Shown in pieces: positions 23,252 to 52,574 of a stretch of 64,000 nucleotides of DNA. The notes under the pieces are model-generated. The model did not search any database and was not told the DNA's origin. It was given only the letters and a program-made list of their open reading frames with translations. The translations under genes and the position numbers were made by a program. This DNA is from Armatimonadota bacterium (lineage in GTDB: Bacteria; Armatimonadota; Hebobacteria; GCA-020354555; CP070648): NCBI GenBank assembly GCA_035527535.1, contig DATLAK010000084.1:9413-73412 (forward strand). Reading direction: 5' to 3'. Position 1 is the first letter of the stretch. Each line of letters opens with the position of its first letter.

Positions 23252-23279
23252 GTAGGGGCGCATGGCCATGCGCCCCTAC
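23252..23279. repeat. REP-A palindrome GTAGGGGCGCATGGCCATGCGCCCCTAC (plus CCCCGACCAGTCGGGG at 23322-23337)
   Basis: Perfect palindrome. Same ends as the other REP-A copies. Confidence 0.6.
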
Positions 23280-23502
23280 TCGTGCGCATCGGGGAAAAGT
23301 GGCAGCCCCTAGGCGTCGCAGCCCCGACCAGTCGGGGTCGCGGAGCGACTTAGCCACTTGGCGACCTCGCCCGCATAGGGCCGCGCGTCGGCGGAAACGC
23401 GGTTTCGTCGCGCGCACCCGGCGCACCTCTTTCCGGGGGGAGGGCGCAGGAGTTGAGGCGGGGGCGGAGAATGCCGACGACAGATCGGGCGAGGGCTGCG
23501 AC

Positions 23503-24342
23503 ATGATTGACATTCATCTTCATGTGGGACGGCTGTATCTGGAGCCGCCGCTGCGCCCGTCCTACCTGCTGAACTTCATGGACCGCCACGGGATCGAGAA
23601 AGCAGCGCTGCTGCCGATGGAGAACCCGGAGCAGACCTATTTCTACGTCACGACCGCGGAGGTGCTGCGGGTTTGCCGCCGCCACCCCGATCGGTTCATC
23701 CCGTTCTGCAATGTTGATCCGCGGCGGTGGGCCGGCGACCGGTCCACGGACTTTGCGAGCGTGCTCAACGAATACCGGGAACGCGGATGTCGAGGATTCG
23801 GCGAGGGCATCTGCGGTCTCCCCATAGACGACCCCCGGCTGTGCGCCATCTACGAGATCTGCGGCCGCCTGGGGATGCCCGTAATCCTCGATCTCACCGC
23901 CCAAACCAACATTGACGAGCAGGGCCTGCCGCGTTTCGAGAAGATGCTGCGCGACCTGCCGGCGACGGTGTTCCTCGGTCACGGGGCGCATTTCTGGGCT
24001 GAGATCTCCGGCGATGTCACGCCGCGGGACTTCAGCGCCTATCCCGGCGGGAAAGTCGCGGCGGGCGGCGCGGCGCCGAGGCTGCTGGAACGCCATCCCA
24101 ATCTCTACGGCGATCTCTCGGCGAACAGCGGCTACAACGCCCTGACCCGCGACCCCGAGTTCGGCTACCGATTCCTGGAGGCGTTCCAGGGCAAGCTGAT
24201 CTTGGGCACCGACCTGTGCCACGCGGGCCAGCAGGCGCCGATCATTCCGTACCTCAAGGACGCCCTGGCGCAGGGGAGAATCTCTCGCGCCGCGTTCGAC
24301 CAAATCACCCGCACCAACGCGGAGCGCATACTCGGACTGTGA
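23503..24342 (+). CDS. amidohydrolase-family (TIM-barrel metal-dependent hydrolase) protein
   Basis: MIDIHLHVG...GHGAHFW...DLCHAG is the metal-ligand pattern. Confidence 0.6.
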   Translation: MIDIHLHVGRLYLEPPLRPSYLLNFMDRHGIEKAALLPMENPEQTYFYVTTAEVLRVCRRHPDRFIPFCNVDPRRWAGDRSTDFASVLNEYRERGCRGFGEGICGLPIDDPRLCAIYEICGRLGMPVILDLTAQTNIDEQGLPRFEKMLRDLPATVFLGHGAHFWAEISGDVTPRDFSAYPGGKVAAGGAAPRLLERHPNLYGDLSANSGYNALTRDPEFGYRFLEAFQGKLILGTDLCHAGQQAPIIPYLKDALAQGRISRAAFDQITRTNAERILGL

Positions 24343-24504
24343 GCGCGTAGCGCTGCGGGGGCACAACCGAGTTGCTCTGGTTTCCGGGCCGCAGACGCCC
24401 GCCGAAGGCGGGCCCGGTGAGGGTGCAGTCTACCGCCCAGCCCGAAGTTCGGCGGAAACGCCCCATGCCGGCCGTGCTTGCCGCAAGCGAGAGGAGACAG
24501 ACCC

Positions 24505-25695
24505 GTGAGACTGAAGAGCAAGCAGGTTTTCATACCCTCGCCCGGGCCGGGCGCGCTGGTGTATGGAAACTCGTTCTATACGCGCCGCGACGGGGTCGAG
24601 AAAATGGCGGTGCGCATGGTGGAGACTCGCAGCGATCTCATGGACGCCGTGGAAATCGCGTTCTCCCGCGACAACGGCAGAACCTGGTCCGCATGGGAAG
24701 CCCGCGACTGTGTCGCGCAAACGCCCCAAGGCCTTCACCGCCGCGTGCCGGCCCCGGGGTTCGTGGACCCCGAAACCGATCGCCTGATCACGATTGTGCT
24801 GGAGGGGACGCTGCCGACCGACGACCCCCTCGAGGGAATGACCACCTACTACCTGAGCTACCAGGTTTCGACCGACGGCGGGCGCACCAACCAGGTTGAC
24901 GAGCAGATCATCCAGCAGGGCGACTACGCGCCGGAACATCCCCTCGACGGCGTGTGGGTCGGGAAGAATGCCATCATAACCGGGTCCCGCCCGTATTTCC
25001 GCAGCCGCGACGGCAGGCTGCTTTTCCCCATGCAGGTGACGCCCCTCGGCCCTGACGGCGAATACTGGAATCCCGGCGGCGGGGCGACTTATACCGAGGC
25101 GGTGGTATTGATCGGCGCCTGGCGCGAAGGGTTGAGGATGAGGTGGGAGGTCTCGCAGCGCGTGGCCCTCGAGCCGGCGAAATCCACCCGCGGCGCCATC
25201 GAGCCGACCGTGGCCGAGATGCCCGACGGCCGCCTGCTCATGGTCATGCGCGGCAGCAATGACGCCAATCTCGCGCTGCCCGGGTGCAAGTGGTATGCCG
25301 TTTCCACTGACGGCGGTTGCGCCTGGAGCGCGCCGCAGCCGTGGACTTATGACGACGGCGGCGGCTTCTATTCGCCCAGCAGCATCTCGCTGCTCCTGCG
25401 CCACTCCAACGGCCGCTGCTACTGGCTCGGCAACATCACGCCCGACAACCCGCGCGGCAACCAGCCCCGGTATCCCCTCATCATCGGCGAGGTTGACCGC
25501 GCCAATCTGCTGCTCATCAGGGACCGCGTGGTGGTGGTTGATGATCGCCGGCCGCATGACGATCCGTCGCTGCAACTGTCGAACTTCGACGCGCACGAGG
25601 ATCGCGAGAACGGCGACATCATCCTGCATGTGAGCCGGTTCGATGCGAACGCGTGGCACGGCGATGCGTACCTCTATCGGTTAGCGCCGGAGTAG
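24505..25695 (+). CDS. BNR/Asp-box repeat glycosidase (sialidase-like)
   Basis: Asp-boxes SRDNGRTWS, STDGGRT, STDGGCAWS. GTG start with a GAGGAG RBS. Confidence 0.7.
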   Translation: MRLKSKQVFIPSPGPGALVYGNSFYTRRDGVEKMAVRMVETRSDLMDAVEIAFSRDNGRTWSAWEARDCVAQTPQGLHRRVPAPGFVDPETDRLITIVLEGTLPTDDPLEGMTTYYLSYQVSTDGGRTNQVDEQIIQQGDYAPEHPLDGVWVGKNAIITGSRPYFRSRDGRLLFPMQVTPLGPDGEYWNPGGGATYTEAVVLIGAWREGLRMRWEVSQRVALEPAKSTRGAIEPTVAEMPDGRLLMVMRGSNDANLALPGCKWYAVSTDGGCAWSAPQPWTYDDGGGFYSPSSISLLLRHSNGRCYWLGNITPDNPRGNQPRYPLIIGEVDRANLLLIRDRVVVVDDRRPHDDPSLQLSNFDAHEDRENGDIILHVSRFDANAWHGDAYLYRLAPE

Positions 25696-25841
25696 CGACG
25701 ATCCGCGAAGGCCCGCCCCGGTCAGAGTCATCGTTCTCACAATAACGGAGCTCCAGGGCAGCGCCTCCCTTCCGTTGCCCCTGCGCAGCTTGTGTGCTAT
25801 GATAGCGGCGCCTGGCTTATCGGATCCCGGGGAGGTCGCGC

Positions 25842-27554
25842 TTGCGCGCATCTGAGCTGCTATTTCCAACGCTGCGGGAGGTGCCGACCGACGCCGAGCT
25901 GCCGAGCCACCGGCTGCTCCTGCGCGGCGGGTTCATCCGCAAACTGGTGGCAGGGGTGTACTCCTACCTGCCGCTGGGCTGGCGAGTCCTGCGCAAGGTC
26001 GAGGCCATCGTGCGCGAGGAGATGGACCGCGCCGGGGCGCAGGAGCTGCTGCTGCCGGCGCTGCATCCGCAGGAGCTGTGGCAGCAAAGCGGGCGGGCCG
26101 GGCGTGAGGACTTGCTGCGCCTCACCGACCGCGGCGAGCGCGATTTCATCCTCGGCGCCACCCACGAGGAGGCCATTACCGACCTCGTGCGCCAGGACGT
26201 CGGCTCCTATCGCGATCTGCCCTTCATTCTCTACCAGATCCAGACCAAGTTCCGCGACGAGCCGCGTCCCCGCGGGGGGCTCATCCGCGCGCGCGAGTTC
26301 ATCATGAAGGATGCCTACAGCTTCGACCGCGACCACGCCGGCATGAACGCGGCGTACGACCGCATGGAGGCCGCCTACGAGCGCGTGTTCGCGCGCTGCG
26401 GGCTCCAATATGTCAAGGTTGACGCCGAGGCGGTGTCCATGGGCGGGGTCGAGGCCAAGGAGTTCATGCTGCCGTCCCCCAGCGGCGAGGACCTGGTCTT
26501 CATCTGCCCGTCGTGCGGCTACGCCGCCAGCGGGGACATGGCGGAGTACGCGGCGCCCCAGGACGGGGGGGTGCCACATGCCGCGCCCGCGTTGGAGAAG
26601 GTCTCCACCCCCGGCATGAAGACGGTGGACGAGGTCACCGCCTTCCTCGGGGTGGAGAGTGCGCGGCTCATCAAGACGCTGATCTACCGCGTCGGCGGCA
26701 AGCCGGTGGCGGTGCTGGTGCGGGGAGACCGCGACCTCAACCAGGCCAAGCTGTCGCACGCGGTCAACGCGACCGACATTGCGCTGGCGGAGGCGGCGCT
26801 GGTGCGCGAGGCAACCGGCGCGGCCGTCGGTTTCGCCGGGCCGGTGGGGCTGAAGCAGATGACCATCATCGCCGACCACGAGCTGCGGGGCGGCGCCAAC
26901 TACGTCACCGGCGCCAACGAGGACGACGCCCACCTGGTCAACGTCAACCCCGGTCGTGACTTCTCCGTTGACCAGTGGGCGAGCCTGCGCCTGGTCACCG
27001 GCGGCGACCCCTGCCCGCGCTGCCGCGCGCCGCTGGAGGAGCGCCGCGCCATCGAGCTCGGCCACATCTTCAAGCTGGGAACCTACTACAGCGACCGCCT
27101 CAACGCTCTCTATCGCGCCGAAGACGGCTCGTCGCGTCCCGTGGTCATGGGCTGCTACGGCATCGGCGTCAGCCGCATCGTCGCCGCCGCCATCGAGCAG
27201 GGGCATGATGACAACGGCATCATCTGGCCCCTGGGCATCGCCCCCTTCCACTGCGCGGTGGTGATCGTCAACCTCAAGGATCAGGCGCAGCGCGACCTGG
27301 GTGAGGAAATCCATCGGAGACTGGACGAAGCCGGCGTCGAAGTGCTGCTGGACGACCGCGACCAGAGCCCGGGGGTCAAGTTCAAGGACCTCGATCTCAT
27401 CGGCATCCCCCTGCAGGTGGTGGCGGGCAAGCGCGCGGGCGAGGGTCTGGCCGAGGTGCGCCGGCGAGGGCACCGGGGCGCCGAGTTCAAGCAGGCGCAG
27501 GCGGCTGCCGCCTGGGTGCAGGAGCAGCTTGCGGAGGCCGGGATGCGATCGTGA
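25842..27554 (+). CDS. proS: prolyl-tRNA synthetase (bacterial type)
   Basis: MRASELLFPTLREVP. Class II motifs. TTG start with a GGGAGG RBS. Confidence 0.9.
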   Translation: MRASELLFPTLREVPTDAELPSHRLLLRGGFIRKLVAGVYSYLPLGWRVLRKVEAIVREEMDRAGAQELLLPALHPQELWQQSGRAGREDLLRLTDRGERDFILGATHEEAITDLVRQDVGSYRDLPFILYQIQTKFRDEPRPRGGLIRAREFIMKDAYSFDRDHAGMNAAYDRMEAAYERVFARCGLQYVKVDAEAVSMGGVEAKEFMLPSPSGEDLVFICPSCGYAASGDMAEYAAPQDGGVPHAAPALEKVSTPGMKTVDEVTAFLGVESARLIKTLIYRVGGKPVAVLVRGDRDLNQAKLSHAVNATDIALAEAALVREATGAAVGFAGPVGLKQMTIIADHELRGGANYVTGANEDDAHLVNVNPGRDFSVDQWASLRLVTGGDPCPRCRAPLEERRAIELGHIFKLGTYYSDRLNALYRAEDGSSRPVVMGCYGIGVSRIVAAAIEQGHDDNGIIWPLGIAPFHCAVVIVNLKDQAQRDLGEEIHRRLDEAGVEVLLDDRDQSPGVKFKDLDLIGIPLQVVAGKRAGEGLAEVRRRGHRGAEFKQAQAAAAWVQEQLAEAGMRS

Positions 27555-27606
27555 GGTCGCGTCCCGGAGGGCCGCTGATTGCTCCCGCACCGCGAGGTAA
27601 GCGAGC

Positions 27607-28281: not shown

Positions 28282-28318
28282 CCGCGTTCACCCCCGTTGG
28301 CGGCGCGCCCGCCCGTCC

Positions 28319-28433: not shown

Positions 28434-28595
28434 CCAAACATGTTGTCCATCACCACGATTACGACAACCTACGCGTAGCGCGTCGGCTCGTCCAGCAGCG
28501 CGCTGCGTGATTTCGCCTCCCGGCAACGGGGGGCATTTTAGTTGCGGGGGAGCCGGACACGGGCGGGGCGCCCATGCTCCATTCCGGAGGGACTC

Positions 28596-30542
28596 ATGAG
28601 CATTATCATCGAAGTGGATCAGACCCAGGCGGGGAAGCAAACCATCGCCGAGTGGCTGCAAACTCGCGACCAGGGGAATGTGGCACCCCGACCGATCGGG
28701 GTGTCCCCTCTGGCACAGCAGGCGGTCGCAGCGCGCGCGGACGGCGCGTTGCTCGACCTGACCGCCCCGCTGCCGGCAAGCGACCGCCTGGAGATCCTGA
28801 CCTTCGAGGATGAAGCGGGGCGCGAGGTCTATCACCACTCGACCAGCCACATCATGGCGCAGGCGGTCACCCAGCTCTTCCCCGACGCGCACCTGGCTAT
28901 CGGCCCCGCCATCGCCGAGGGCTTCTACTACGACTTCGACCTGTCACACAAGTTCGTGCCCGAGGATCTGGAGCGCATTGAGGACGAAATGCGGCGCATC
29001 ATCGCCGCCGACCTGCCCTTCGCGCGCGAGGAGATGGCCCGCGATGCCGCCGTCGGCTTCTTCAAGGAGCGCGGCGAGGACTACAAGGTCGAGCTGCTGC
29101 AGGAGATCGCCGATGACCGCGTCAGCATCTACCGCGACGGCGATTTCGTGGACCTGTGCCGCGGGCCGCATCTGCCCTCCACCGGGCGCGTCGGCGCGGT
29201 CAAGCTGCTCAGCATCGCCGGGGCCTACTGGCGCGGCGACGAGCGCCGCCCTCAGCTCCAGCGCATCTACGGCGTCAGCTTCCCCACCCAGGAGCAGCTC
29301 GACGAGTTCCTGCGCCTGCGCGAGCAGGCGGCCCTGCGCGACCACCGCCGCCTGGGCAAAGAGCTCGACTTGTTCTCGATCCCCGAGGAGCTGGGCGGTG
29401 GGCTGGTGCTGTGGCATCCCAAGGGCGCGTTGGTGCGCTACCTGATCGAAGAGTTCTGGCGCCGCGAGCACTACCAGCGCGGCTACCAATTGGTGTTCTC
29501 GCCGCATATCGCGCGCGCCCACCTGTGGGAAACCAGCGGCCACCTCAGCTTCTACAAGGAGGGCATGTACGGCCCGCTGATGATTGACGAGGACGAGTAC
29601 CGCCTCAAGCCCATGAACTGCCCCTTCCACTTGCTCATCTATAAGAGCCGGATGCGCAGCTATCGCGATCTGCCGATCCGCTATGCCGAGCTGGGCACCG
29701 TCTATCGCTACGAGCGCTCCGGGGTGCTGCATGGCCTGCTGCGCGTGCGCGGGTTCACCCAGGACGACGCGCACATCATCTGCACCCCGGAGCAGATCGG
29801 CGACGAAGTGAAGGGCGTGCTCGACCTGACGCTGTTCATGATGAACGCCTTCGGCTACCAGGACTTCGAGGTGGACCTGAGCGTGCGGGATGAGGCCGAC
29901 CACGCCAAGTACATGGGGTCGGACGAGGACTGGGCGATCGCGGAGAAGTCGCTGACCGCGGCGCTGGACGACAAAGGGGTTACCTATAAGCGCGCGCCGG
30001 GCGAGGCGGTGTTCTACGGGCCGAAGATTGACATCAAGCTGCGCGACTCCATGGGGCGGGTGTGGCAGGGGCCGACTATCCAATTCGACTTCAACCTGAC
30101 CAGTCGCTTCAACATGGAGTACATCGGCGCCGACGGGCAGGCGCACACCCCGCTGATGGTGCACCGCGCGCTGCTGGGCTCCATCGAGCGCTTCTTCGGC
30201 GGGCTGGTGGAACACACGGGGGGCGCTTTCCCCGCCTGGCTGGCGCCGGTGCAGGCGGTGGTGCTGCCGATTGCCGAGCGGCATCAGGAATGTGCGCGCG
30301 GGGTGCACGAGCGACTGACGGCCGCCGGCTTCCGCGCCGACCTCGATGACCGCAACGAGAGCATGCGCTACAAGATCCGCGAGGCGCAGGTGCAGAAGGT
30401 GCCCTACATGCTCGTCGTCGGCGACCGCGAGGCGGAATCGGGGCAGGTCTCCGTCCGCTCCCGCAGCGCGGGCGACCTCGGCGCGCAGGGGCTAGACGAG
30501 TTCGTCGCCCACCTGACCGCCGAGGTGGAAAGCAAGGGTTGA
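28596..30542 (+). CDS. thrS: threonyl-tRNA synthetase
   Basis: N-terminal TGS domain, class II core, HRAL..., C-terminal anticodon-binding domain. RBS GGAGGG. Confidence 0.9.
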   Translation: MSIIIEVDQTQAGKQTIAEWLQTRDQGNVAPRPIGVSPLAQQAVAARADGALLDLTAPLPASDRLEILTFEDEAGREVYHHSTSHIMAQAVTQLFPDAHLAIGPAIAEGFYYDFDLSHKFVPEDLERIEDEMRRIIAADLPFAREEMARDAAVGFFKERGEDYKVELLQEIADDRVSIYRDGDFVDLCRGPHLPSTGRVGAVKLLSIAGAYWRGDERRPQLQRIYGVSFPTQEQLDEFLRLREQAALRDHRRLGKELDLFSIPEELGGGLVLWHPKGALVRYLIEEFWRREHYQRGYQLVFSPHIARAHLWETSGHLSFYKEGMYGPLMIDEDEYRLKPMNCPFHLLIYKSRMRSYRDLPIRYAELGTVYRYERSGVLHGLLRVRGFTQDDAHIICTPEQIGDEVKGVLDLTLFMMNAFGYQDFEVDLSVRDEADHAKYMGSDEDWAIAEKSLTAALDDKGVTYKRAPGEAVFYGPKIDIKLRDSMGRVWQGPTIQFDFNLTSRFNMEYIGADGQAHTPLMVHRALLGSIERFFGGLVEHTGGAFPAWLAPVQAVVLPIAERHQECARGVHERLTAAGFRADLDDRNESMRYKIREAQVQKVPYMLVVGDREAESGQVSVRSRSAGDLGAQGLDEFVAHLTAEVESKG

Positions 30543-30610
30543 ACCGCAGAGAACGCGGAGGCCGCGGAGAGGGATATTGAACCGCCGACAAACGCAGACG
30601 GACGCCGATG

Positions 30611-30668
30611 GTAGGGGCGCGATTCATCGCGCCCTCCGGAGCCGGGCACAGCGTACTGTGCCCCTACG
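30611..30668. repeat. REP-A element GTAGGGGCGCGATTCATCGCGCCC...GTGCCCCTAC
   Basis: Palindromic GGGCGCGATTCATCGCGCCC core flanked by GTAGG...CCTAC ends. Confidence 0.6.
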
Positions 30669-30676
30669 TTTCCGCT

Positions 30677-30703
30677 CCGCGCTCTCTGCGTCTCTGCGGT
30701 GAG
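30677..30703 (+). promoter_or_regulatory. 27-nt motif CCGCGCTCTCTGCGTCTCTGCGGTGAG just upstream of the HAD gene start
   Basis: 26/27 identical to 31447-31473 upstream of the next gene. Confidence 0.4.
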
Positions 30704-30705
30704 GC

Positions 30706-31419
30706 ATGAACACCATGACTTGGCCGCGCGCCATACTATTGGATTTCTACGGCACCGTCGTCGAAGAGGACGACGTGGCGATCGCCGCCATTTGCGAGCA
30801 GGTGACGAGCGCGTGCGGCAATGACGCGGCCTCGCGCCGGATCGGTTCGTACTGGGGCCGCGCCTTCGCAGACATGTGCCTGCACAGCCACGGGGAGAGC
30901 TTCGGAAGTCAGCGGGAATTGGCGGTTGCGTCTTTGCGGGAGACCCTGCTGCATTTCGGGCCGCGTCTCGATGCGGTCACACTGAGTCAATCACAGTGGC
31001 GCTACTGGACGCAGCCGGAGCTGTTCCCCGAGAGCAGAGAAGTGCTCGCTAGTTGCGGCGTGCCGATCTGCCTGGTGAGCAACATTGACAACGATGATCT
31101 GGCGGCTGCCCTCGCGCACAATGGGTTGTCATTCGACCTGATCGTGACCAGCGAGGACTGCAGAGCCTACAAGCCGCGGCCCGAACCGTTCAGACGTGCT
31201 CTTTCCCTGCTGGGGTTGCCGCCGGAGGCGGTATTGCATGTGGGTGATTCTATTGGGGCTGATGTCCGGGGAGCGAAGGCCGAGGGGATTCCTGTGCTCT
31301 GGATAAACCGACAAGGGAAGTCTGTGCCGACCGGAGATGATGCCCCCGACTATGCGGCGAGCGACCTGAGCGGGCTTCTCCGCGTGCTGCCCGCAGCTCG
31401 TTCCCACCGTCAGGGCTGA
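30706..31419 (+). CDS. HAD-IA family hydrolase
   Basis: LLDFYGTVV (DxYGT), VSNID, HVGDSIGADVRGAKAEG. Confidence 0.75.
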   Translation: MNTMTWPRAILLDFYGTVVEEDDVAIAAICEQVTSACGNDAASRRIGSYWGRAFADMCLHSHGESFGSQRELAVASLRETLLHFGPRLDAVTLSQSQWRYWTQPELFPESREVLASCGVPICLVSNIDNDDLAAALAHNGLSFDLIVTSEDCRAYKPRPEPFRRALSLLGLPPEAVLHVGDSIGADVRGAKAEGIPVLWINRQGKSVPTGDDAPDYAASDLSGLLRVLPAARSHRQG

Positions 31420-31446
31420 TCCGCGTCAATCCGCAGCCGCGAATCT

Positions 31447-31473
31447 CCGCGCCCTCTGCGTCTCTGCGGTGAG
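31447..31473 (+). promoter_or_regulatory. second copy of the 27-nt motif CCGCGCCCTCTGCGTCTCTGCGGTGAG
   Basis: 9 bp upstream of the DUF1638 gene start. Confidence 0.4.
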
Positions 31474-31481
31474 CATTGCAC

Positions 31482-32297
31482 ATGCGAATCAAGGTCATCG
31501 CCTGCGAAGTGCTGTTCCGCGAGGTCTGCCTGTGCGCGGCGCGGTCGCCGCACGTCATTGACCTCGAGTTCCTGCGTCGCGGGCTGCACGACAACCCGGA
31601 GACGCTGCGCGCGGAGGTGCAGCAAGCGATAGACGCGACGGACGCCCGTGGGGGCGCGATTCATCGCGCCCATTCACCCCGATGGATCGGGGTGCCACAT
31701 GTCAAGTACGACGCCATCGCCCTCGGCTACGGCCTATGCAGCAACGGCACGCTGGGCCTGGTCGCGCGTGACACGCCGCTGGTGATCCCGCGCGCCCACG
31801 ACTGCATCACCTTCTTCCTCGGCTCCAAGGACGCCTATCATCGCCACTTCCACGACGAGCCGGGGACCTATTACTACACCTCCGGCTGGGTGGAGCGCGC
31901 CGGCGGCGGCGTCCCGCGCACCCGCGAGGAGGGCGAAGGGCTGCAGATACCCTACGAGGAGTTGGTCGCCAAATACGGCGAGGACAACGCGCAATACCTG
32001 TACGAGATCAGCCAGTCGTGGATCAAGAACTACGCGCGGGCGGCGTTCATCGGCCTGGGGCTGGGGCCGCAGGAAGCGCTGCGAGCCGAGGCGCTGCGGG
32101 TGGCGCAGGAGCGGTCGTGGGATTTCACCGACCTGCCCGGCGATCTGCGCCTGCTGTGCAAGCTGCTCGACGGCGAATGGGACGAGGCGGAGTTCCTGGT
32201 CGTGCCCCCAGGCCATCGGGTGACCCGCGGCGACGAGGCAAGCATTTTGGCCACGGAAGACGCGGATGAGAGCAAACCGCCGATGTACGCCGATTGA
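31482..32297 (+). CDS. DUF1638-family protein (corrinoid-methyltransferase-associated family) carrying an in-frame palindromic insertion
   Basis: MRIKVIACEVLFRE N-terminus. 31648-31694 encodes RGGAIHRAHSPRWIGVP from two REP palindromes. Confidence 0.5.
   Translation: MRIKVIACEVLFREVCLCAARSPHVIDLEFLRRGLHDNPETLRAEVQQAIDATDARGGAIHRAHSPRWIGVPHVKYDAIALGYGLCSNGTLGLVARDTPLVIPRAHDCITFFLGSKDAYHRHFHDEPGTYYYTSGWVERAGGGVPRTREEGEGLQIPYEELVAKYGEDNAQYLYEISQSWIKNYARAAFIGLGLGPQEALRAEALRVAQERSWDFTDLPGDLRLLCKLLDGEWDEAEFLVVPPGHRVTRGDEASILATEDADESKPPMYAD
31648..31694. repeat. REP-A core GTGGGGGCGCGATTCATCGCGCCC plus CACCCCGATGGATCGGGGTG, inside the coding sequence
   Basis: Same GGGCGCGATTCATCGCGCCC as at 30613-30634. 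Confidence 0.6.
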
Positions 32298-32311
32298 CGC
32301 CGAACGGGAAG

Positions 32312-32333
32312 GTAGGGGCGCACGGCGTGCGCC
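32312..32333. repeat. REP-A GTAGGGGCGCACGGCGTGCGCCC
   Basis: Exact reverse complement of the copy at 35788-35810. Confidence 0.6.
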
Positions 32334-32402
32334 CAACGTGGGAGACACCCCCTGGCCTGAATCTGTGCCGACTCTTTCGAACCTCGACGGACCTCGTAGC
32401 CT

Positions 32403-34448
32403 CTACTTCGCTTGCACGAATTCGGCCTGGCCGTCGGCGTAGCCGTAGAGGCGGCCGCCGGGGCGCAGGCCGGGCACGCTCGGGCTGGGCGGCTCGCCAG
32501 CGGCGTTGCGCGTGTCCGAGCTGAACTCGTAAAGAACGACCATGTTTGCCGGGTCGGCGATGTCGGAGAGGTTCAGGCCACTCACTGCGACATTCATTGC
32601 GTAGCTGTACTTATGCTTCTCCCCTGCGCAGCGCAGCACATCTTCGCTCCGGAGGTACGGCTTGATATCGTCCATCCAGGTAGCTGCATTAGGTAAGCGC
32701 CCGTCGTGATCTTTGGCGAACATGCGCAAAGCGAGCATGAGTTGCTGAGCGTTCCTAACCCATGCCTTCAGGGCACCCTGCGCGATTGGATGTGCCCTGC
32801 CGCTCCCGACGGTATAGTGCGTCTTGTGTATCTCATCGTTCACTTCGGTCCCCGGCTTGAAGTGAAGCTCGAGGTCCTTGGGCGAAAGCTTCGTGTTCGC
32901 ATCGAAAGACAGAACGCGCATTTCCCCTATGGTTGTGCTCCCGTCGTCGTTCTTCGTGTGCATCGTCATCCGCGTCGGCAGCCAGGCATGGCCTGCCTTC
33001 TTCACCTCCTTCACTCTCTGCTCACCGTGCACCGCGCCACCTACGCGAAAGCTGACAATCCTCGGGATGAAGCCGTGGACATCATCAATCCAGTAGTACA
33101 CCTGGTGTCCCTTCGCCCAATCCAAGAGGAATCCGAATCCCTTGACCCCGAATTGCGTCTCGGGGCGCGCCCACCGTGCGTGTCCCGACTCAGCCTGCGA
33201 CTGCAACTCCCGCCAGTGCACAAGGTTAGGACCAGTCCCGCGGATCACCGAAAGAGGGTTGCCCAATTGGAACCCTCTCCAGTCCATGGCGGTTCCAGTC
33301 GCATGGAGTACCTTGCCGGTGAGCAAGTCTTCGCCTGACGGCTGCTTCATCTCTTCGGCCTGATGTATCTCCCGACCGTCGGTCCATACGCTCATGCGCG
33401 GCATGACGGATTCGGGCGACATCGTGGATTCGAGGTCCTCGAAGTAGACAGTGCTTGGCGCCACATACTTCATAAGGAACTTCTTGCGCATGGTCTGTTG
33501 GGGCGCCTCCTGCGTGTATTCCACCTCAGCAGCAAGATGGCGTATGGCTTCGTAGTTTCGCTGCATGCCTGCCGCCCTTATCGCTGCTTCATGCTTGACA
33601 TTTATGCGGCCACCCGAGCGCGGGTGCGCTGGCGGCGATGCACCATGGTCTCCGACCAACCGCGGCACGCCAACCACCGCTCCGCCCACTACTGCCAAAC
33701 CAAGCGCGACGTAAATCCCCTTGACCATCAGTCCAGCCTCCTTCCATAGGGTCCAGACACCGTGCAACAAGCCGACAGTCGCTGGAGCCGCGTGGCCGAT
33801 GCTGTGAGCGATAGCCGGCGCCAGGCTCGGCGGCGCAGCCCCTTGCCCTTGCAGCGCGGTGACGAGGCCCGTAGCGGGCGGCGCCTGTCCCCCGGCGATG
33901 ATCGCCAGCCCGGCGGCCTCGCTCGGCAGCGCTCGGCGCAGGGATTCCAGCGCGCGCCGCAGTCGAGTCGAGACCGTGCCCACTGGCGCGCGGGTAATGC
34001 TCGCGATCTCGCGGTAGCTCAGCCCCTGATCGTAGTAGAGCGATACCGCCTCGCGCTGCTCCGGGCGCAGCCGCGCCACCGCCGCGAGCACCTGCTCATG
34101 CTCCAGCCGCGCCATGGCCTGCTCGGCGACCGGCGTACCCCCGGCCGGTTGCTGTTCGTCGAGCGGCTGCTCGGCAAGGTGGGCCTTGCGCGCCCTTTCC
34201 CGCCAGAGGTTGGTGGCGATGGCGAAGAGGAAGGGGCCGACCGGCCGGGCGCGGTTGAAGCGTGGCAACGCGCGGTAGAACCGGATAAAGGCCTCCTGGC
34301 AGAGGTCTTCGGCTTCCTCGTGGCGGCCGGCAAGGCGCAGGAGATGGCGATACAGCCCATCCTGGTAGCGGCGCACTATGTCGTCGAAGGCACTGCGGTC
34401 GCCGTCAAAGGTGCGCCTTATCAGTTCGCGATCATCGGTCATGTCCAT
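32403..34448 (-). CDS. ECF (sigma-70 family) sigma factor fused in-frame to a TM helix and a large C-terminal domain with an H-X9-DG-like (DUF1559-like) tail
   Basis: Region 2 EDLCQEAFIRFYRALPRF. Region 4 LSYREIASITRAPVGTVSTRLRRALESL. TM GIYVALGLAVVGGAVVGV. C-terminus GGRLYGYADGQAEFV. Single 681-aa ORF. Confidence 0.6.
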   Translation of the reverse strand: MDMTDDRELIRRTFDGDRSAFDDIVRRYQDGLYRHLLRLAGRHEEAEDLCQEAFIRFYRALPRFNRARPVGPFLFAIATNLWRERARKAHLAEQPLDEQQPAGGTPVAEQAMARLEHEQVLAAVARLRPEQREAVSLYYDQGLSYREIASITRAPVGTVSTRLRRALESLRRALPSEAAGLAIIAGGQAPPATGLVTALQGQGAAPPSLAPAIAHSIGHAAPATVGLLHGVWTLWKEAGLMVKGIYVALGLAVVGGAVVGVPRLVGDHGASPPAHPRSGGRINVKHEAAIRAAGMQRNYEAIRHLAAEVEYTQEAPQQTMRKKFLMKYVAPSTVYFEDLESTMSPESVMPRMSVWTDGREIHQAEEMKQPSGEDLLTGKVLHATGTAMDWRGFQLGNPLSVIRGTGPNLVHWRELQSQAESGHARWARPETQFGVKGFGFLLDWAKGHQVYYWIDDVHGFIPRIVSFRVGGAVHGEQRVKEVKKAGHAWLPTRMTMHTKNDDGSTTIGEMRVLSFDANTKLSPKDLELHFKPGTEVNDEIHKTHYTVGSGRAHPIAQGALKAWVRNAQQLMLALRMFAKDHDGRLPNAATWMDDIKPYLRSEDVLRCAGEKHKYSYAMNVAVSGLNLSDIADPANMVVLYEFSSDTRNAAGEPPSPSVPGLRPGGRLYGYADGQAEFVQAK

Positions 34449-34624
34449 CGGCGTTCGTCGGTGTCAGTCGGCGGTTCCAATGGTAGTATGCATTTCGGCG
34501 ATGGCTTGTTTCACCCGGCGGAGAGAAACTATGGCCGAAGATGGCGCGCAGATGCGGTAGGGGATTCCCCTCGGCGGGCTCGGGGCAGGCTCTCGGTCGT
34601 GCGGTCCCCCTCGGAATGACATTC

Positions 34625-35575: not shown

Positions 35576-35763
35576 GTGGTCTCGCCCGGTGCAACGGGGG
35601 AGAGTCAGGTAGGTACTTAGACCCCGGCGCGCGATTTCCTCTGGCGCGCTGCCGCCGAAGGCACGGACCCGGAGCCCGTGTCGCAGCGCCGCCGGCCTGC
35701 GCGCGGGGATACGCGGGTGTGACCGTTCTTGGTTGGGGTGGCCGGTTGTGTGCCCGAATGTGG

Positions 35764-35810
35764 CACCCCGGCCGGTCGGGGTGGAGCGGGCGCACGCCGT
35801 GCGCCCCTAC
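35764..35810. repeat. REP composite CACCCCGGCCGGTCGGGGTG + GGGCGCACGCCGTGCGCCCCTAC
   Basis: Palindromes related to REP-A/REP-B. Located upstream of tRNA-Gln. Confidence 0.6.
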
Positions 35811-35865
35811 AGATTCTCGCGACCCATCCCAACTTTCCGCGGTTCCACCCGCAGGCTCGTCCTGG

Positions 35866-44547: not shown

Positions 44548-44785
44548 CCGTTCGCGGGGCTGGGCCGCCAGCCGGAGCGGGGGCGATGCACCGCGGGTTT
44601 GCCTGCCCTATTGAGTGGCTAGGTCGCGCCGCGACCGCCACCCCGGCCCAGCGGGCTTAAGGGCTCGTCGAATGGGTCGAAGGGGGGCCCCGCCTGGCGA
44701 CCGGCGGGCAAGCCCCGGCAGTGCTACATGGCAGGGCTCACACCAACGTACCGAGTTCACACCCCCTCGGCAGGAGCTGCTGGGT

Positions 44786-44850
44786 CAGTCGGCGCAGCCC
44801 CCAGTCAGTCGGCGCAGCCCTTGACAGGCCATGGCGCCCTGTGCTAGATT
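44786..44850 (+). promoter_or_regulatory. tandem 15-mer CAGTCGGCGCAGCCC x2 followed by promoter TTGACA-N18-TGcTAGATT
   Basis: -35 at 44821-44826. Extended -10 at 44842-44850. Begins a ~430 bp leader before the 3D-domain gene. Confidence 0.4.
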
Positions 44851-44896
44851 GACGAGTCGCGACTCAAGGGGGCGACCTGGCCGAAGCGGAGACTAT

Positions 44897-44923
44897 CTCG
44901 CCCCGACCGGTCGGGGCGCCCGT
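44897..44923. repeat. REP-B CTCGCCCCGACCGGTCGGGGCGCCCGT
   Basis: 27/27 identical to 52548-52574. Confidence 0.65.
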
Positions 44924-47840: not shown

Positions 47841-48048
47841 CCGCGAGCCTCGCGATCGCGGCGGGCCGTCCGCGGTCGGGAATCCATGGTCGGCGGCCCG
47901 CGACTGCCTAGATTATAGCAGAACGCGAGCGTGAATTCGGCTGCGCGGAAAGGCCAGGCAGCGCACGCGGCGAAACATATCACGTCATGGTCGCCGCAGC
48001 CGCCGCCTGGTAAAAAAGCGTTTGCTCCGGTCAAGAGCGTGTGGTATA

Positions 48049-48783: not shown

Positions 48784-48954
48784 ATCGGCGAGACGGTCGC
48801 GGCTGGCTTGGCCTGCAGGCGCTTCAGCGTTCAACTGCTCGCCCGCTGCGCACGGGCGAACACAACCGAATAGGGCACCACGAACCCGTTGCCGGCCGTA
48901 GGCTGACGGCATACAGCACACTTGCAGCACACATCACAGAACCGGGAGGGTCGC

Positions 48955-49356
48955 ATGTCAGGCGTAGTGGAACGGGTCAAGGGCTGGTTGTTCGCCGAGG
49001 ACGACGGCGATGAGACGGCGGCGCCGGTGAGCGCGGACCGCGGCGCCAAACCACGATTGCTTCTCCATCCCCGCCAGGACGAGATCTTCGTCCGCTGGCC
49101 CAAGTCGCTGGATGACGCCCAGGTCTGCGCCGATTGCTTGAAGGCGCGCCGGCCGGTGATCGTCAACCTGCGCATGCTCGAGGATCTTCAGGCTCGCCGC
49201 GTGCTCGATTTTCTGGGCGGCGTCGTTTACGCCATTGACGGCCACCTGGAGCAGGCAGGCGACGGCATCTACGTCCTCGCACCCGCGGCCATGCTCATCA
49301 CCGCCGAGGCGGACGAGCAGCCCGTCGCCGCCGACCTCTGGAGCGATCCCTCCTAG
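48955..49356 (+). CDS. sepF: cell division protein SepF
   Basis: ~130 aa. RPVIVNLRMLEDLQARRVLDFLGGVVYAIDGHLEQAGDGIYVLAP. Confidence 0.75.
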   Translation: MSGVVERVKGWLFAEDDGDETAAPVSADRGAKPRLLLHPRQDEIFVRWPKSLDDAQVCADCLKARRPVIVNLRMLEDLQARRVLDFLGGVVYAIDGHLEQAGDGIYVLAPAAMLITAEADEQPVAADLWSDPS

Positions 49357-49482
49357 GATCGCCGCGGCGTCCCCACCGCCGGCGGTGACGGCTGTTCGCA
49401 GCCCCACGGTGGGCGCAGGCCAGGCGCGGGCGCGCCACACCGGGCCGCGCGCGGGGCTGCGGCGTCACGCTGCGGCGTTACT

Positions 49483-50307
49483 ATGTCCGACGCCCGCACC
49501 ATAGCGATCATCGGCACCGGCCGCATGGGCACGGCGCTGGCGAGCGGCCTCATCGCCACCGGCGCCGCCGCCGCCTCGATTCGCGCCTTCGATCACGACC
49601 CGGCGCGCCTGCGCGCCGTCGAGGGCCTGGGCTTGACCCCGTGCGCCGACACGGCGGCAGCGGCCGCCGGGGCGGCCCTGATCGTGATCGCGGTCAAGCC
49701 GGCGGACGTCCCCGCCGCGCTCGCGCAAGTCGCTCCCTCCCTCACTGCTGCAACCCAGACGGTGCTGTCGCTCGCCGCGGGGGTCACGACGCGGGCGCTG
49801 CGCGCGGCGCTGCCGCGGGACTGCCCGGCGGGGGTGGTACGGGCGATGCCCAACACGCCCTGCGTGGTGGGCGAGGGGATGGCGGTGATCGCCGCGGACA
49901 GCCCCGCGTCGGCGAAGGGCATCGCCGCCGCGCGAGAGGTGCTGGCGGCGGTGGGGCGGGTCATCGAGCTGCCGGAGGCGCTGCTCGACGCCGCCACCGG
50001 GCTCTCGGGGAGCGGTCCGGCCTATGCCTTCGTCTTCATGCAGGCTTTGGCTGACGGCGGAGTTGCGGCCGGGCTGCCGCGGGTGGTGGCGATCGAGCTG
50101 GCGGCGCAGACGGTGCTGGGAGCGGCGCGCATGGTGCTGGCGGGAGAGGGGCACCCCGAGCAGCTCAAGGACGCGGTGATGTCGCCCGCGGGCACCACCG
50201 CCGCCGGCGTCGCCGCCCTCGAGGCGCGCGGGCTGCGCGCGGCGGCGATGGAGGCGGTCGTCGCCGCCTGGCGCCGCGCGCGCGAGTTGGGAGCAGAGGA
50301 CCCGTGA
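49483..50307 (+). CDS. proC: pyrroline-5-carboxylate reductase
   Basis: IAIIGTGRMG Rossmann, C-terminal dimerisation domain SPAGTT. Confidence 0.85.
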   Translation: MSDARTIAIIGTGRMGTALASGLIATGAAAASIRAFDHDPARLRAVEGLGLTPCADTAAAAAGAALIVIAVKPADVPAALAQVAPSLTAATQTVLSLAAGVTTRALRAALPRDCPAGVVRAMPNTPCVVGEGMAVIAADSPASAKGIAAAREVLAAVGRVIELPEALLDAATGLSGSGPAYAFVFMQALADGGVAAGLPRVVAIELAAQTVLGAARMVLAGEGHPEQLKDAVMSPAGTTAAGVAALEARGLRAAAMEAVVAAWRRARELGAEDP

Positions 50308-50594
50308 CCCCGGCGCAGATCGGCGTGAACATGCAAGTGATATCGCTCATCCACATGGCCTTCTGGCTGCTGCAGCTGCTGGTGTTGGCGCGAGTGATCA
50401 TTTCCTGGATCCGGGTAGATGCCCGGCATCCGCTGGTGCGCCTTATCCACGACCTGACCGAGCCCATGCTGCGGCCCTTGCGCTCGATGCTGCGCGTGCA
50501 GAGCATGGGGCTCGACTTCTCGCCCATCGTTCTCTTGCTCCTATTGTGGGTCGCGGAGCGGATAATCGTCAATCTGGTGGCAGGAGCGTTCTAG
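50304..50594 (+). CDS. yggT: YggT-family membrane protein
   Basis: ~90 aa, two TM helices, VIISWI motif. Confidence 0.65.
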   Translation: MTPAQIGVNMQVISLIHMAFWLLQLLVLARVIISWIRVDARHPLVRLIHDLTEPMLRPLRSMLRVQSMGLDFSPIVLLLLLWVAERIIVNLVAGAF

Positions 50595-50608
50595 TGGTCA
50601 ACGACATC

Positions 50609-51073
50609 ATGCCCATTGACATCGTCAACCAGAAGTTCCGCCAGGGTCTGCGGGGGTACGTGCAGACCGAGGTGGACGACTTCATGGGGCGAGTGGCGGA
50701 CGCATACGGCAAGGCGTTGGAGGAGAACGACCGCCTGAAGCAGCAACTGGAGAAGGCGGAGCGGGAGCTGCGCCAGTATCGGGATACGGAGGAGATGATC
50801 AAGAGCGCGCTGGTGCTGGCGGAAAAGACGGCGGACGAGGCGCGCAGTCGCGCGCAGGACAAGGCGAGCCTGATGGTGCGCGAGGCCGAGCAGCAGGCGC
50901 GCGAGACGCTGGCGGCGGCCCGGCGCGACGCGGAGGGCATAGCGCGCGAGGTGGAGGAGCTGCGACGCGAGCGAGCCCGCTTCGAGGCCGAGTTCCGGGG
51001 GCTGCTGGAGACCTACCTCCACCTGCTGGCGGGCGGCTCGCGCGCCGAAACGGTACCGGATCAGTCATGCTAG
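50609..51073 (+). CDS. divIVA: DivIVA-domain protein
   Basis: MPIDIVNQKFRQGLRGY N-terminal DivIVA motif plus a coiled-coil. Confidence 0.75.
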   Translation: MPIDIVNQKFRQGLRGYVQTEVDDFMGRVADAYGKALEENDRLKQQLEKAERELRQYRDTEEMIKSALVLAEKTADEARSRAQDKASLMVREAEQQARETLAAARRDAEGIAREVEELRRERARFEAEFRGLLETYLHLLAGGSRAETVPDQSC

Positions 51074-52518
51074 CGAGCGAGGAGCCGAGACCGCAACCGC
51101 AGCCGGCCCCGCAGGGAGACTCGCGGGGCCGTATCGCAGCAGCGGTGGTGCTGCTGGGGTTGGCGGCGCTGGGGCTGACCGCCGAGGTCGTGGTGTCCAC
51201 CGCCACCGACGCCGGCCGCGCCCAGATGCGCACCCACCAGGCGCGCATGGATCTCTTCCAGGGCCGGGTGGTGCTGGGGCTGACCTACTACCTGGAGGGC
51301 CTTGAGTCCGACCGGTCGTTTGCCCTGCGGCAGCGCAAGGCGGCGGGGCGCTTCGCGCGCATGGGCGTCCAGAGTGCGGCGGCGTACTTCCAGCGGGCGG
51401 CGCAGGGGCTCCAGGACCCGCAGGAGCATACCGCCGCCATCGCCTCGGCGGCGGCGCTCTATGCCCACGGCGGCGATACCATGCGCGCGCTGCGGGTGCT
51501 TCAGGGGTCACTGGACATCGGCCGTCGCGACGTCCTGTCGCTGCTGGCTCAACTCTACGCCAACAACCGGCTCACGCAGGAATGGCTGGTCAGCGAAGCG
51601 GCGGCGTGGATACCGCAGCGGGTGCCGGCGCACCTGCTGATCGAATCGCAGATCGCGGTCAGCGGCGGCCGCGTGCAGCGGGACCTCGAGCTGCGCCGGA
51701 GCATGTTCGAGGCGGGGGTGCGGCTGGTCAAGCGGGTGGGGGCGTTGATGGCAGGCTTCATCGCGCTCATGCTGCTGGGGGTCGGGGTGCTGCTGTGGGG
51801 AATCCTGCGGCGGGCCGGCTTCGGCCCCTACCACGGCCTGCCCGAACGCCCCTGGGGGGCGTGGGCGGGCCTGGAGCTGGTGGGGGCGTGGCTGGTGCTG
51901 AGCACGCTCGTGGCAGGGGGCACTCTTGCGTTCGCGCGTCGCCTGGGCACGACGGGCGTCATCGCCGCCATCTTGGCCTCATACATCGCGGCCTCGGTGC
52001 TTGCCCTGTGGTGGTTTGCCGCGGCGGTGGCGCCGCCGGGCACGGGCCTGCGCACCGCCGGCTGGCGCCGCCTGTCGGTGGCCAAGAGCATCGCCCACGG
52101 CATCGGCGCCTACGCTGCGGCCCTGCCGCTGGCCATGGCGGCGGTCGTCGTTGCCAGTCGCCTGCTGCCCGCGCCGCCCGTCAACCTGCTGGTGGCCGAG
52201 ATGACCCGGGCGCATGGGCTGGCGGCGCGCGCGCTGCTGCTGGTGCTGCTGTGCGTGGCCGCGCCGGTGGTGGAGGAGACGGTGTTCCGCGGAGCCCTCT
52301 ACGGCGGCATGCGCAAGCGCTGGACGATGCCGGTGGCGGCGCTGGCGAGCGCGGTGGTGTTCGCGCTCGTGCACCTCAACTGGGTGAGCTTCGTGCCGGT
52401 GCTGGTGCTCGGGGTGGCGCTGTGCGTGGTTTACGAGCGCACGGGGTCGCTGCTGCCGGGGATGGTCGCGCACGGCCTTTTCAACTTCGCTACCGCGGTC
52501 GCGCTATTCCTGCTCTAG
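51067..52518 (+). CDS. CPBP-family intramembrane metalloprotease (CAAX protease) with long N-terminal extension
   Basis: EETVFRGALYG (EExxxR), FALVHL, HGLFNF motifs in C-terminal TM helices. Confidence 0.7.
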   Translation: MLASEEPRPQPQPAPQGDSRGRIAAAVVLLGLAALGLTAEVVVSTATDAGRAQMRTHQARMDLFQGRVVLGLTYYLEGLESDRSFALRQRKAAGRFARMGVQSAAAYFQRAAQGLQDPQEHTAAIASAAALYAHGGDTMRALRVLQGSLDIGRRDVLSLLAQLYANNRLTQEWLVSEAAAWIPQRVPAHLLIESQIAVSGGRVQRDLELRRSMFEAGVRLVKRVGALMAGFIALMLLGVGVLLWGILRRAGFGPYHGLPERPWGAWAGLELVGAWLVLSTLVAGGTLAFARRLGTTGVIAAILASYIAASVLALWWFAAAVAPPGTGLRTAGWRRLSVAKSIAHGIGAYAAALPLAMAAVVVASRLLPAPPVNLLVAEMTRAHGLAARALLLVLLCVAAPVVEETVFRGALYGGMRKRWTMPVAALASAVVFALVHLNWVSFVPVLVLGVALCVVYERTGSLLPGMVAHGLFNFATAVALFLL

Positions 52519-52547
52519 GGGCGCGACTTCGCTGAAGTCGCGGTTGT

Positions 52548-52574
52548 CTCGCCCCGACCGGTCGGGGCGCCCGT
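52548..52574. repeat. REP-B CTCGCCCCGACCGGTCGGGGCGCCCGT (second exact copy), preceded by hairpin CGCGACTTCGCTGAAGTCGCG
   Basis: Exact 27-mer shared with 44897-44923. Confidence 0.65.

Follow-up and report, generated by a model that had tools for sequence, protein, structure and literature searches.

Tagged palindromic repeats in the chromosome of an uncultured Armatimonadota bacterium, probable members of the GTAG superfamily

Short stem-loops bearing an unpaired GTAG at one foot make up a superfamily of repetitive extragenic palindromes (REPs), and it is very probably to this superfamily that the palindromes dispersed over a 64-kb stretch of DNA from the chromosome of an uncultured Armatimonadota bacterium belong. 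That whole stretch is called the window here; the closest named relatives of its threonyl-tRNA synthetase (ThrRS, the product of thrS) come from metagenome-assembled genomes of Armatimonadota. The superfamily was surveyed by Di Nocera, De Gregorio and Rocco 2013 (PMC3733652), and the survey gives its elements as stem-loops of 20-40 bp, with a stem of 6-13 bp, a short loop and the unpaired tag at one foot, a tag that degenerates to GTRG or GTGG in some families. In the same survey, head-out (HH) dimers predominate, hybrid dimers between families exist, sub-families differ by complementary changes in the stem, and copies prefer unidirectional or convergent spacers, with an occasional in-frame copy within a gene. 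Proteobacteria, Cyanobacteria, Chloroflexi and the Planctomycetes-Verrucomicrobia-Chlamydiae (PVC) group are among the hosts listed there, a family named GTAG-23 being found in the Chloroflexi Thermomicrobium roseum and Roseiflexus castenholzii (PMC3733652).

The units of the window match this superfamily in stem length, in loop, in tag (for sub-types A, C and B1, presented below), in having sub-types whose stems differ by complementary changes and in the presence of HH and hybrid dimers. Their copies, too, lie mostly in spacers between same-direction or convergent genes, with occasional in-frame intragenic ones. They differ in that Armatimonadota does not figure among the host phyla named there, and in an unusually high diversity of stems. 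A literature search found no work linking Armatimonadota with REP-associated tyrosine transposases (RAYTs).

The REPs of Escherichia coli have bulged, imperfect stems and are organized in arrays with defined linkers, the bacterial interspersed mosaic elements (BIMEs). What the window shares with them is GTAG-tagged extragenic palindromes, which in E. coli are recognized by TnpA-REP (4ER8), the best solved relative of the RAYT of the clade. By contrast, the stems of the window are perfect, no array extends beyond two units and there is no alternating array of REP and inverted REP (iREP). An earlier note on this DNA had suggested that its repeats may be REP/BIME-like: the REP half of the label holds, with tagged hairpins, dimers whose tags point outward, a mostly intergenic location and insertion polymorphism, whereas nothing of the E. 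coli type of BIME organization was seen.

TnpA-REP binds the folded, single-stranded REP and needs the GTAG for cleavage at a CT, which may stand on the 5' or the 3' side of the hairpin; a change from GTAG to GTGG redirects the cleavage in one system (PMC8266576). The group 3 REPs of Corneloup et al. 2021 (PMC8266576) are short perfect palindromes, with for example an 8-bp stem and a loop of 3 nucleotides (nt), and the short perfect palindromes of the window resemble them. With REPIN-RAYT systems (Bertels and Rainey 2011, PMC3116915) and REPtrons (Ton-Hoang et al.; PMC8266576) the likeness is twofold: inverted REP pairs form a larger foldable unit and, in relatives (contigs L170 and L175, and 76 of 80 loci), a Y1/HUH RAYT gene is flanked by the same REPs. 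Unlike in these systems, no cognate RAYT was seen in the window or in about 10 kb on either side, and the nearest one, that of the relative L170, is a pseudogene. The doublets of the window also differ from classical REPINs, because their arms usually have different stems, so that one arm cannot pair with the other over its whole length, and each folds alone: in five of the six, the fold predicted for single-stranded DNA consists of two separate hairpins (z -4.8 to -5.6).

Anatomy and abundance of the units

Counts and sites refer to the window, and to extensions of 10 kb on each side where this is said; the extensions were recovered from identical metagenome contigs, and gene calls were taken from metagenome contigs 99.9-100% identical to the window. 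About 28 units were found at 20 sites. Each is a GC-rich, perfect or near-perfect hairpin with a stem of 8-11 bp and a loop of 1-4 nt. The tag at its 5' foot, which the B2 subgroup lacks (see below), is GTAG or GTGG, usually lengthened to GGTAGGG or RATGTGG, and the stem starts in the G-run of the tag. The proximal pairs of the stem are conserved and the distal ones variable: the stem types are GGGCGCG.., GGGCGCGAT, GGGCGCACG, GGGCGCATG, GGGCACAG, GGCAGCCG, GCCAGGCG, GACAAGCG and CACCCCGA, and at least six of them share one tag within 64 kb. Units stand singly or as inverted pairs with their tags outward (head-out). Six such doublets, of 51-64 nt, begin at 5782, 15311, 17275, 30610, 31648 and 35760; many single hairpins are of only 23-26 nt. 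The folds of the units as single-stranded DNA have z of about -3 to -6, and the tags pair into a basal stem in two doublets (5778-5848 and 31644-31702).

Three families, A, B and C, had been distinguished in the earlier note, and all the copies that it listed are present at the positions given. The repeats are thus real, whereas their separateness did not survive: A, B and C are better read as sub-types of one tagged superfamily, which form hybrid doublets (A with B1, at 31648 and 35760). More copies lie in the 10-kb extensions, and some of these join B1-type tags to C-type stems, for example GAATGTGG-CGCAGCCGtctCGGCTGCG. The copies at 32312-32334 and 35788-35810 are indeed exact reverse complements, over 23 nt, and the 27-mers at 44897-44923 and 52548-52574 are identical, as had been said, within a 56-nt repeat that is 82% identical. 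Family A had been described as made of palindromes; its sites are correct, whereas the full GTAG...CTAC palindrome is found only at 23251-23280, the others being single-tagged hairpins or halves of doublets, and the copy at 31648 carries GTGG in place of the GTAG ascribed to it. The ending CCTGGCCTACCG attributed to family C is seen in two of its three doublets, that at 17275 ending in GCTGCACTACC. Copies beyond this first list comprise B-type ones at 1447, 28684, 53594 and 58885, an A-type one at 15505, a C-type one at 10094 and palindromes tagged GTGGC at 5875 and 44615.

The GC content of the window is 61-73%; GC-rich palindromes are therefore expected to some degree, yet the excess is large. 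Dinucleotide-preserving shuffles served as the null model (300 for the main pattern counts, 100-300 overall). Against 300 shuffles, the exact word GTAGGGGCGC occurs five times, both strands taken together, for 0.26 expected (shuffle maximum 2), the family B core CCCCGR-N4-YCGGGG ten times for 0.15 (maximum 2), and family C hairpins (7 bp or more, with closure on CG-TCT/AGA-CG) five times for 0.013 (maximum 1). Perfect hairpins, defined by a stem of at least 8 and a loop of at most 8, number 49, where 20.8 +/- 4.6 are expected, and 22 of the 49 fall wholly within the intergenic 14.4% of the window. Hairpins with GT[AG]G at the foot are 13, for 1.03 +/- 1.02 expected and a shuffle maximum of 4. 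An unbiased scan of the 4-mers at hairpin feet ranks TAGG first (12 for 1.6 expected, p = 1e-7) and GTAG third. When one mismatch is allowed in the 10-mer GTAGGGGCGC, the enrichment is only weak (19 for 11.2). Outside the window, the family A pattern is very widespread: GTAGGGGCGC-N6-9-GCGCCC was met in at least 120 stretches of a viral contig collection, with GC contents from 45% to 73% and many as inverted pairs; a motif scan detected no RAYT among 120 viral contigs bearing such hairpins. A scan of the whole window at the Rfam gathering threshold returned two tRNAs only, with no repeat matching a curated RNA family, and a literature search for the string GTAGGGGCG retrieved unrelated primer sequences only.

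The earlier note had placed almost all copies between genes. This is so for 16 of the 20 sites, which are wholly intergenic, whereas three lie fully inside called genes (thrS, a DUF1638 gene and a 3-keto-disaccharide-hydrolase-like gene) and a fourth (52515) has a left foot that runs into a stop codon, its TAG being that of an Rce1-like gene. The majority of sites stand between genes of the same direction; the site at 32311 lies between convergent genes, and those at 10094 and 35760 are in divergent spacers. Several long mechanical open reading frames (ORFs) that run over REPs are over-extensions, such as 15108-16769, the called start of which is at 15564. The sites are listed below, with the strand where one is assigned and with the z of the predicted fold where it was computed.

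1447..1470, B2-like hairpin CGCGCCCCGAttctTCGGGGCGCG lacking a clear GTAG tag, in the spacer that separates an lspA-like gene from a small ORF
5782..5845, family C head-out doublet GGTAG-GGCAGCCGtctCGGCTGCC ... GCCAGGCGggaCGCCTGGC-CTACC, between two URO-D genes; its predicted fold has two hairpins standing on a stem of paired tags, z = -5.6 (segment 5778-5848)
5875..5903, palindrome with a GTGGC tag at both ends, GTGGCGGTCAGCAtTGCTGACCTAGCCAC; of the same design as that at 44615
10094..10126, plus strand, solitary C-like unit GTGG..GAGGGCAGCCGgaaaCGGCTGCCCGC, in the spacer of two divergent genes
15311..15370, family C head-out doublet GGTGG-GACAAGCGtctCGCTTGTCC ... GGCCAGGCGagaCGCCTGGCC-TACC, intergenic; z = -5.5 (15308-15374)
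15505..15530, minus strand, family A-type single unit GTAGGGGCGTGATtcATCACGCCC, from the hairpin census
17275..17335, family C doublet GGTGC-GGCAGGCGtctCGCCTGCC ... GCAGCCGagaCGGCTGC-ACTACC, in a 1-kb gene-free stretch; z = -5.0 (17272-17338)
23216..23237, hairpin CCTCCCCGGCtcGCCGGGGAGG beside the family A palindrome, possibly of the same cluster, its membership being uncertain
23251..23280, family A perfect palindrome of 30 nt with tags at both ends, AGTAGGGGCGCATGGCCATGCGCCCCTACT, in the spacer from rpiA to an amidohydrolase gene; z = -6.0
23320..23339, B2-like hairpin AGCCCCGACCAGTCGGGGTC that bears no tag; the family A palindrome is 40 nt away
28676..28708, plus strand, B1 unit of 33 nt, (G)AATGTGG-CACCCCGAccgaTCGGGGTG-TCCCC(T), in frame in thrS
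30610..30668, family A head-out heterodimer GGTAG-GGGCGCGATtcATCGCGCCC tccggagcc GGGCACAGcgtaCTGTGCCC-CTAC, directly downstream of thrS; z = -5.2 (30607-30671)
31648..31698, hybrid A+B1 head-out doublet GTGG-GGGCGCGATtcATCGCGCCC attc ACCCCGATggATCGGGGTG-CCAC inside the DUF1638 gene, where it encodes RGGAIHRAHSPRWIGVPH; z = -4.8 (31644-31702)
32311..32334, plus strand, family A single unit GGTAGGGGCGCACGgCGTGCGCCC, where the DUF1638 gene and a sigma-70-like gene converge
35760..35810, hybrid B1+A head-out doublet GTGG-CACCCCGGCcgGTCGGGGTG gagc GGGCGCACGcCGTGCGCCC-CTAC, upstream of tRNA-Gln; z = -2.9 (35756-35814)
44615..44641, palindrome with a GTGGC tag at both ends, GTGGCTAGGTCGCGcCGCGACCGCCAC, from the hairpin census
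44868..44923, 56-nt B2 composite, in which a left hairpin, now decayed, is followed by CGCCCCGACCGGTCGGGGCG-CCCGT, in a 732-nt spacer upstream of an Rpf-like gene
52515..52574, B2 composite CTAG-GGGCGCGACTTCgctGAAGTCGCG gttgtct CGCCCCGACCGGTCGGGGCG-CCCGT; z = -3.8
53594..53611, exact B2 core GCCCCGACCGGTCGGGGC, coding for APTGRG in an inter-domain linker
58883..58906, plus strand, intergenic single unit of B1 type, (TTGAG)CACCCCGAtctgTCGGGGTG, whose tag is degenerate

Insertion into genes and turnover of the hairpin cores

The most telling copies are those found within genes, where relatives can be compared site by site. The relatives used were contigs L168 (thrS 93% identical at the nucleotide level), L170 (an 84% ThrRS relative) and L171 (an 80% relative), together with L177, a contig from another sample that is 99.5% identical to L170. 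The ThrRS of the window has an insertion of 11 residues, NVAPRPIGVSP, whose 33 coding nucleotides are exactly one B1 unit; the DNA alignment places them at 28677-28709. Only the window and L168 have this insert in common; the 84% and 80% relatives lack it, as do 22 other ThrRS homologues. In the same alignment the empty site reads ...GGG|CTG... and the filled one ...GGG[33 nt]CTG..., with no target duplication. A second case is provided by the DUF1638 gene, one loop of which is occupied by the A+B1 doublet in the window and by an unrelated element with inverted repeats in L168, the 80% relative having neither; the corresponding segment has a median length of 36 residues in 114 homologues and is of 54 residues in the window. 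Insertion polymorphism between close relatives supports the mobility of the elements. The insert of L168 (2380-2470, orthologous to about 31640-31700 of the window) has the inverted-repeat form TGTCATTCCGAGGGAGCGACG...CGCTGCGCTCAGGATGACA and encodes ...ILRCAQDD...; this loop of L168 carrying a different element, a second family of palindromic repeats is therefore active in the clade.

Where REPs of the window and of L168 are orthologous, their flanks are identical and their cores are altered, yet still self-complementary. In thrS the core is CACCCCGAccgaTCGGGGTG in the window and CACCGGCGccccCGCCTGTG in L168; the two are equally long and differ at 11 of their 14 central nucleotides. In the REP downstream of thrS (30610) two base pairs are changed on both sides, and the L168 orthologue of the 32311 REP keeps its stem and has a 29-nt insertion in the loop. 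This replacement of cores at orthologous sites, including one inside thrS, an essential gene, is the most unusual aspect of the locus. It would make sense if one system reading the tag (GT[AG]G and the first G:C pairs) served an open-ended set of stems, the cores being rewritten in place by gene conversion, template-switch repair or re-insertion; we put this forward as a speculation, and a rather doubtful one. In-frame palindromic insertions that add a short peptide to a tolerant loop are also made by the Rickettsia palindromic elements (RPEs) and by the intragenic REPs of Opitutus terrae, as summed up in the survey quoted above (PMC3733652). The insert of thrS differs from these in being of 11 residues from a single 33-nt unit, and in having a hairpin core that differs between relatives 93% identical, length and frame being kept.

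The comparison with L168 shows other differences in this region. A HAD-hydrolase gene (30715-31419) is absent from L168, where the DUF1638 gene directly follows thrS, and in the window two direct copies of a 38-nt repeat, 87% identical to each other, stand on either side of it (30675-30712 and 31445-31482), which suggests gain or loss of the gene by recombination between the repeats. The neighbouring protein with sigma-70 regions 2 and 4 is fused to an extended C-terminal portion, whose LolA-like match is weak, and is of 681 residues in the window (32403-34448) and of 583 in L168 (3193-4944).

Transposase, mobility and competing explanations

A transposase that could handle such hairpins is found in the clade. 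In L170 an ORF lying between a URO-D gene and the tRNA-Val-thrS pair, immediately upstream of the latter, matches Y1_Tnp (PF01797, 28.4 bits for a cut-off of 23). The motif scan for RAYTs, in its strict form NH.H ... Y..NP, matched nothing; a looser expression picked up this ORF. Its closest solved structure is that of the E. coli TnpA-REP, 4ER8 (E = 8e-10), the IS200-type transposase of ISDra2, 2XM3, being at E = 0.008; its motifs HVH and YVRCNPV align with the HMH and YIYINPV of 4ER8, and its homologues bear the JGI name 'REP element-mobilizing transposase RayT'. The gene is flanked by GTAGGG hairpins, GTAGGGCGGGCGtgccacCGCCCGCC and GGCGGGGAacggcgTCCCCGCC-CTAC, with REPs at 1253, 1460 and 1958. 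A scan of JGI metagenomes with the L170 protein yielded 80 RAYT loci, many of them on contigs of only 1-4 kb. A GTAG-tagged hairpin lies within 200 nt of the gene in 76 of the 80, and on both sides in 50; the RAYT of L175 is likewise flanked by REPs. Some of these hairpins, GTAGGGCGCGCACgcctGTGCGCGCC and GTAGGGCGCGCATG..CATGCGCGCC, are one base away from family A. Two contigs from the window's own sample (JGI sample 3300031565), L204 and L217, carry RAYTs that are 54-55% identical to that of the clade and have flanks of the GTAGGGCGGG type; because of this level of identity, and because the window lacks such REPs, they were not assigned to the genome of the window. As to the surroundings of the RAYT gene itself, at 1473-1958 of L170 and 694-1161 of L177, direct copies of a repeat of about 100 nt lie on both sides of it; they are 96% identical, and each starts with a GTAGGGCGGGCG or GCAGGGCGGGCG hairpin.

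The copies of the window thus probably are, or were, moved by a RAYT-type enzyme. The elements would be non-autonomous. By analogy with the studied family, the RAYT/TnpA-REP (HUH/Y1) enzyme would bind the single-stranded hairpin, once folded, along with the tetranucleotide tag, cut at a nearby dinucleotide and rejoin the strands, and copies would spread in this way without target-site duplication. Inserted copies would persist in intergenic spacers and in permissive loops of proteins, adding 11-18 residues in frame, and the cores of the hairpins would then turn over fast while keeping their self-complementarity. Once transcribed, the hairpins could possibly affect the stability of mRNA 3' ends.

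Several observations weigh against this account. The earlier note had suggested that the repeats are targets of a RAYT encoded elsewhere, which the RAYTs of the clade, accompanied by the same tagged hairpins, make probable; neither the window nor about 10 kb on either side of it, however, contains a Y1/RAYT gene, according to Pfam tables and the motif scan. The sole RAYT of the immediate clade (L170, L177) is interrupted by an in-frame TAA in two independent assemblies; as the stop recurs in the 99.5% identical contig of another sample, it marks a real pseudogene in that population, and the repeats might therefore be fossils. The commonest type of stem flanking RAYTs, GGCGGG.. (GTAGGGCGGG..), is absent from the window. 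The exact B1 form is rare outside the lineage: the pattern TGTGGCACCCCG-N6-8-CGGGGTG gave 39 scattered single matches in 596 Gb of a genome collection without the genome of the window, several of them coding, within urease sequences. Finally, the members of the B2 subgroup (the pair of identical 27-mers, at 44897 and 52548, with the cores at 53594, 23322 and 1447) have no GTAG or GTGG tag, their foot being ACGGG on the reverse strand or no tag at all, and the copy at 53594 brings no clear gain in length over a 35% identical homologue, the linkers being nearly equal (only three homologues were available). A search of the PDB for relatives of the protein that bears this copy came back empty.

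It is on B2 that the unity of the set is least secure. A, C and B1 would then be GTAG/GTGG REPs, and B2 (CTCGCCCCGACCGGTCGGGGCGCCCGT and its kin at the five positions just given) a separate, unrelated repeat or binding site. The missing tag speaks for such a split, as do the longer 56-nt repeat that two of the copies share, the exact core within a coding linker and the segment 44864-44927 (64 nt), which folds no better than shuffled sequence (z = -0.8). Elsewhere, however, the same core is found with a proper GTAG tag at two RAYT loci, as GTAGGGCGCCCCGACtcGTCGGGGC in L186, 34 nt from the RAYT, and as GTAGGGCGCCCCGAtaggTCGGGGCGCC in L180, 3.5 kb from it. In the 52515 composite, the hairpin that forms the left half is A-like and has a CTAGGGGCGCG foot, and the stems of B1 and B2 differ at their closing pairs only. 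For the first two of these reasons we attach B2 to the superfamily; judged from its sequence it probably belongs to the same system, and its independence, though it deserves consideration, is unlikely.

Another explanation is that the hairpins evolved locally as regulatory structures (terminators, stabilizers of mRNA 3' ends or operators) and came to look alike by convergent selection in a GC-rich genome. Most copies do lie between same-direction or convergent genes, often just past a stop codon (30610 and 32311, and 52515 overlapping one); the orthologous spacers of relatives hold tagged hairpins with other stems (downstream of thrS in L168 and L171, downstream of the DUF1638 gene in L171); and compensatory changes preserve the pairing. 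Yet no T-run follows the hairpins in the sequences read around the copies, and none of the terminator-like sites found between 22000 and 37000 coincides with a REP, so that intrinsic (Rho-independent) terminators have been rejected. Copies also sit in divergent spacers (10094, 35760) and in coding regions (28676, 31648), that of thrS being a clean 33-nt insertion when set against its empty site. Exact identities of 23 and 27 nt between distant copies, with a shared GTAG tag, point to copying rather than to convergence, and the same tagged hairpins flank RAYT genes; a regulatory origin of this kind is accordingly quite improbable. Conventional miniature inverted-repeat transposable elements (MITEs), which are deletion derivatives of insertion sequences (ISs) with a DDE transposase, with terminal inverted repeats and target-site duplications, are suggested by the head-out doublets, which resemble small elements of 51-64 nt with inverted ends (GGTAGG...CCTACC). 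They would leave unexplained the lack of a target-site duplication at thrS, where the empty site is known, the many single hairpins of 23-26 nt and the doublets whose halves are often of different sub-types; the transposase that accompanies such hairpins is, moreover, a Y1/HUH enzyme, and the Pfam tables of the window contain no IS gene. We regard this origin as very improbable. As for chance palindromes produced by high GC and codon bias, the 68% GC of the window and the weak enrichment of GTAGGGGCGC with one mismatch speak for them; exact-word and structure-aware counts exceed those of every one of the 100-300 shuffles, by 10- to 400-fold, and the copies concentrate in the intergenic 14% of the window. 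Chance, rejected by these controls, is scarcely credible. Membership of the GTAG-tagged REPs is thus the reading that we retain, with considerable confidence.

Surroundings and significance

A few features near the repeats deserve mention in their own right. The only T-tailed hairpin between 22000 and 37000, at 28515-28534, lies in the tRNA-Val-thrS spacer, and L168 and L170 have conserved it; a terminator of the tRNA or an attenuator in the thrS leader are its possible roles, and Rfam detects no T-box. A motif of about 33 nt, made of three 10-nt units ending in ACGCCGA(Y), occurs at 30579-30611, at 32272-32310 and, inverted, at 34445-34477. It lies directly 5' of two GTAG REPs, and in L168 too it precedes the REP downstream of thrS; the inverted copy extends over the start codon of the sigma-70-like gene (32403-34448). 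The motif might serve as a promoter, an operator or a preferred target of REPs. The gene-free stretch at 17124-18147 (1,024 nt) has no Rfam match and contains several hairpins, among them CCTCTCCCTtcgAGGGAGAGG (17180-17200), of which the 80% relative has a near-identical counterpart (L171, 2705-2725). In the 732-nt spacer upstream of the Rpf-like gene, where no riboswitch was detected, a tandem duplication at 44786-44820 shows CAGTCGGCGCAGCCC twice, 19 nt apart. Farther from the repeats, genes for a NotI-like restriction endonuclease and a D12-class N6-adenine methyltransferase overlap by 8 nt at 2045-3737; as this pair lies in a stretch of lower GC (61%), it is probably an acquired restriction-modification system. 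Tandem paralogous genes at 53899-55470 and 55661-57232, of 523 residues each and without a Pfam match, are 86% identical over their first 300 nt.

Our understanding of REPs is left unchanged by this locus, and no new principle emerges from it. What it brings is an extension of tagged REPs to Armatimonadota and, by implication, of their RAYT partners, in a phylum known almost entirely from metagenomes. It also offers unusually clear REP insertions in coding sequence, with an empty site known for thrS and a protein loop that was struck by two palindromic elements in sister lineages. Such repeats have practical consequences as well, for they break metagenome assemblies and mislead gene callers. 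Should the rewriting of cores prove true, the locus would provide a natural system in which palindromic repeats are maintained, diversified and tolerated within proteins.

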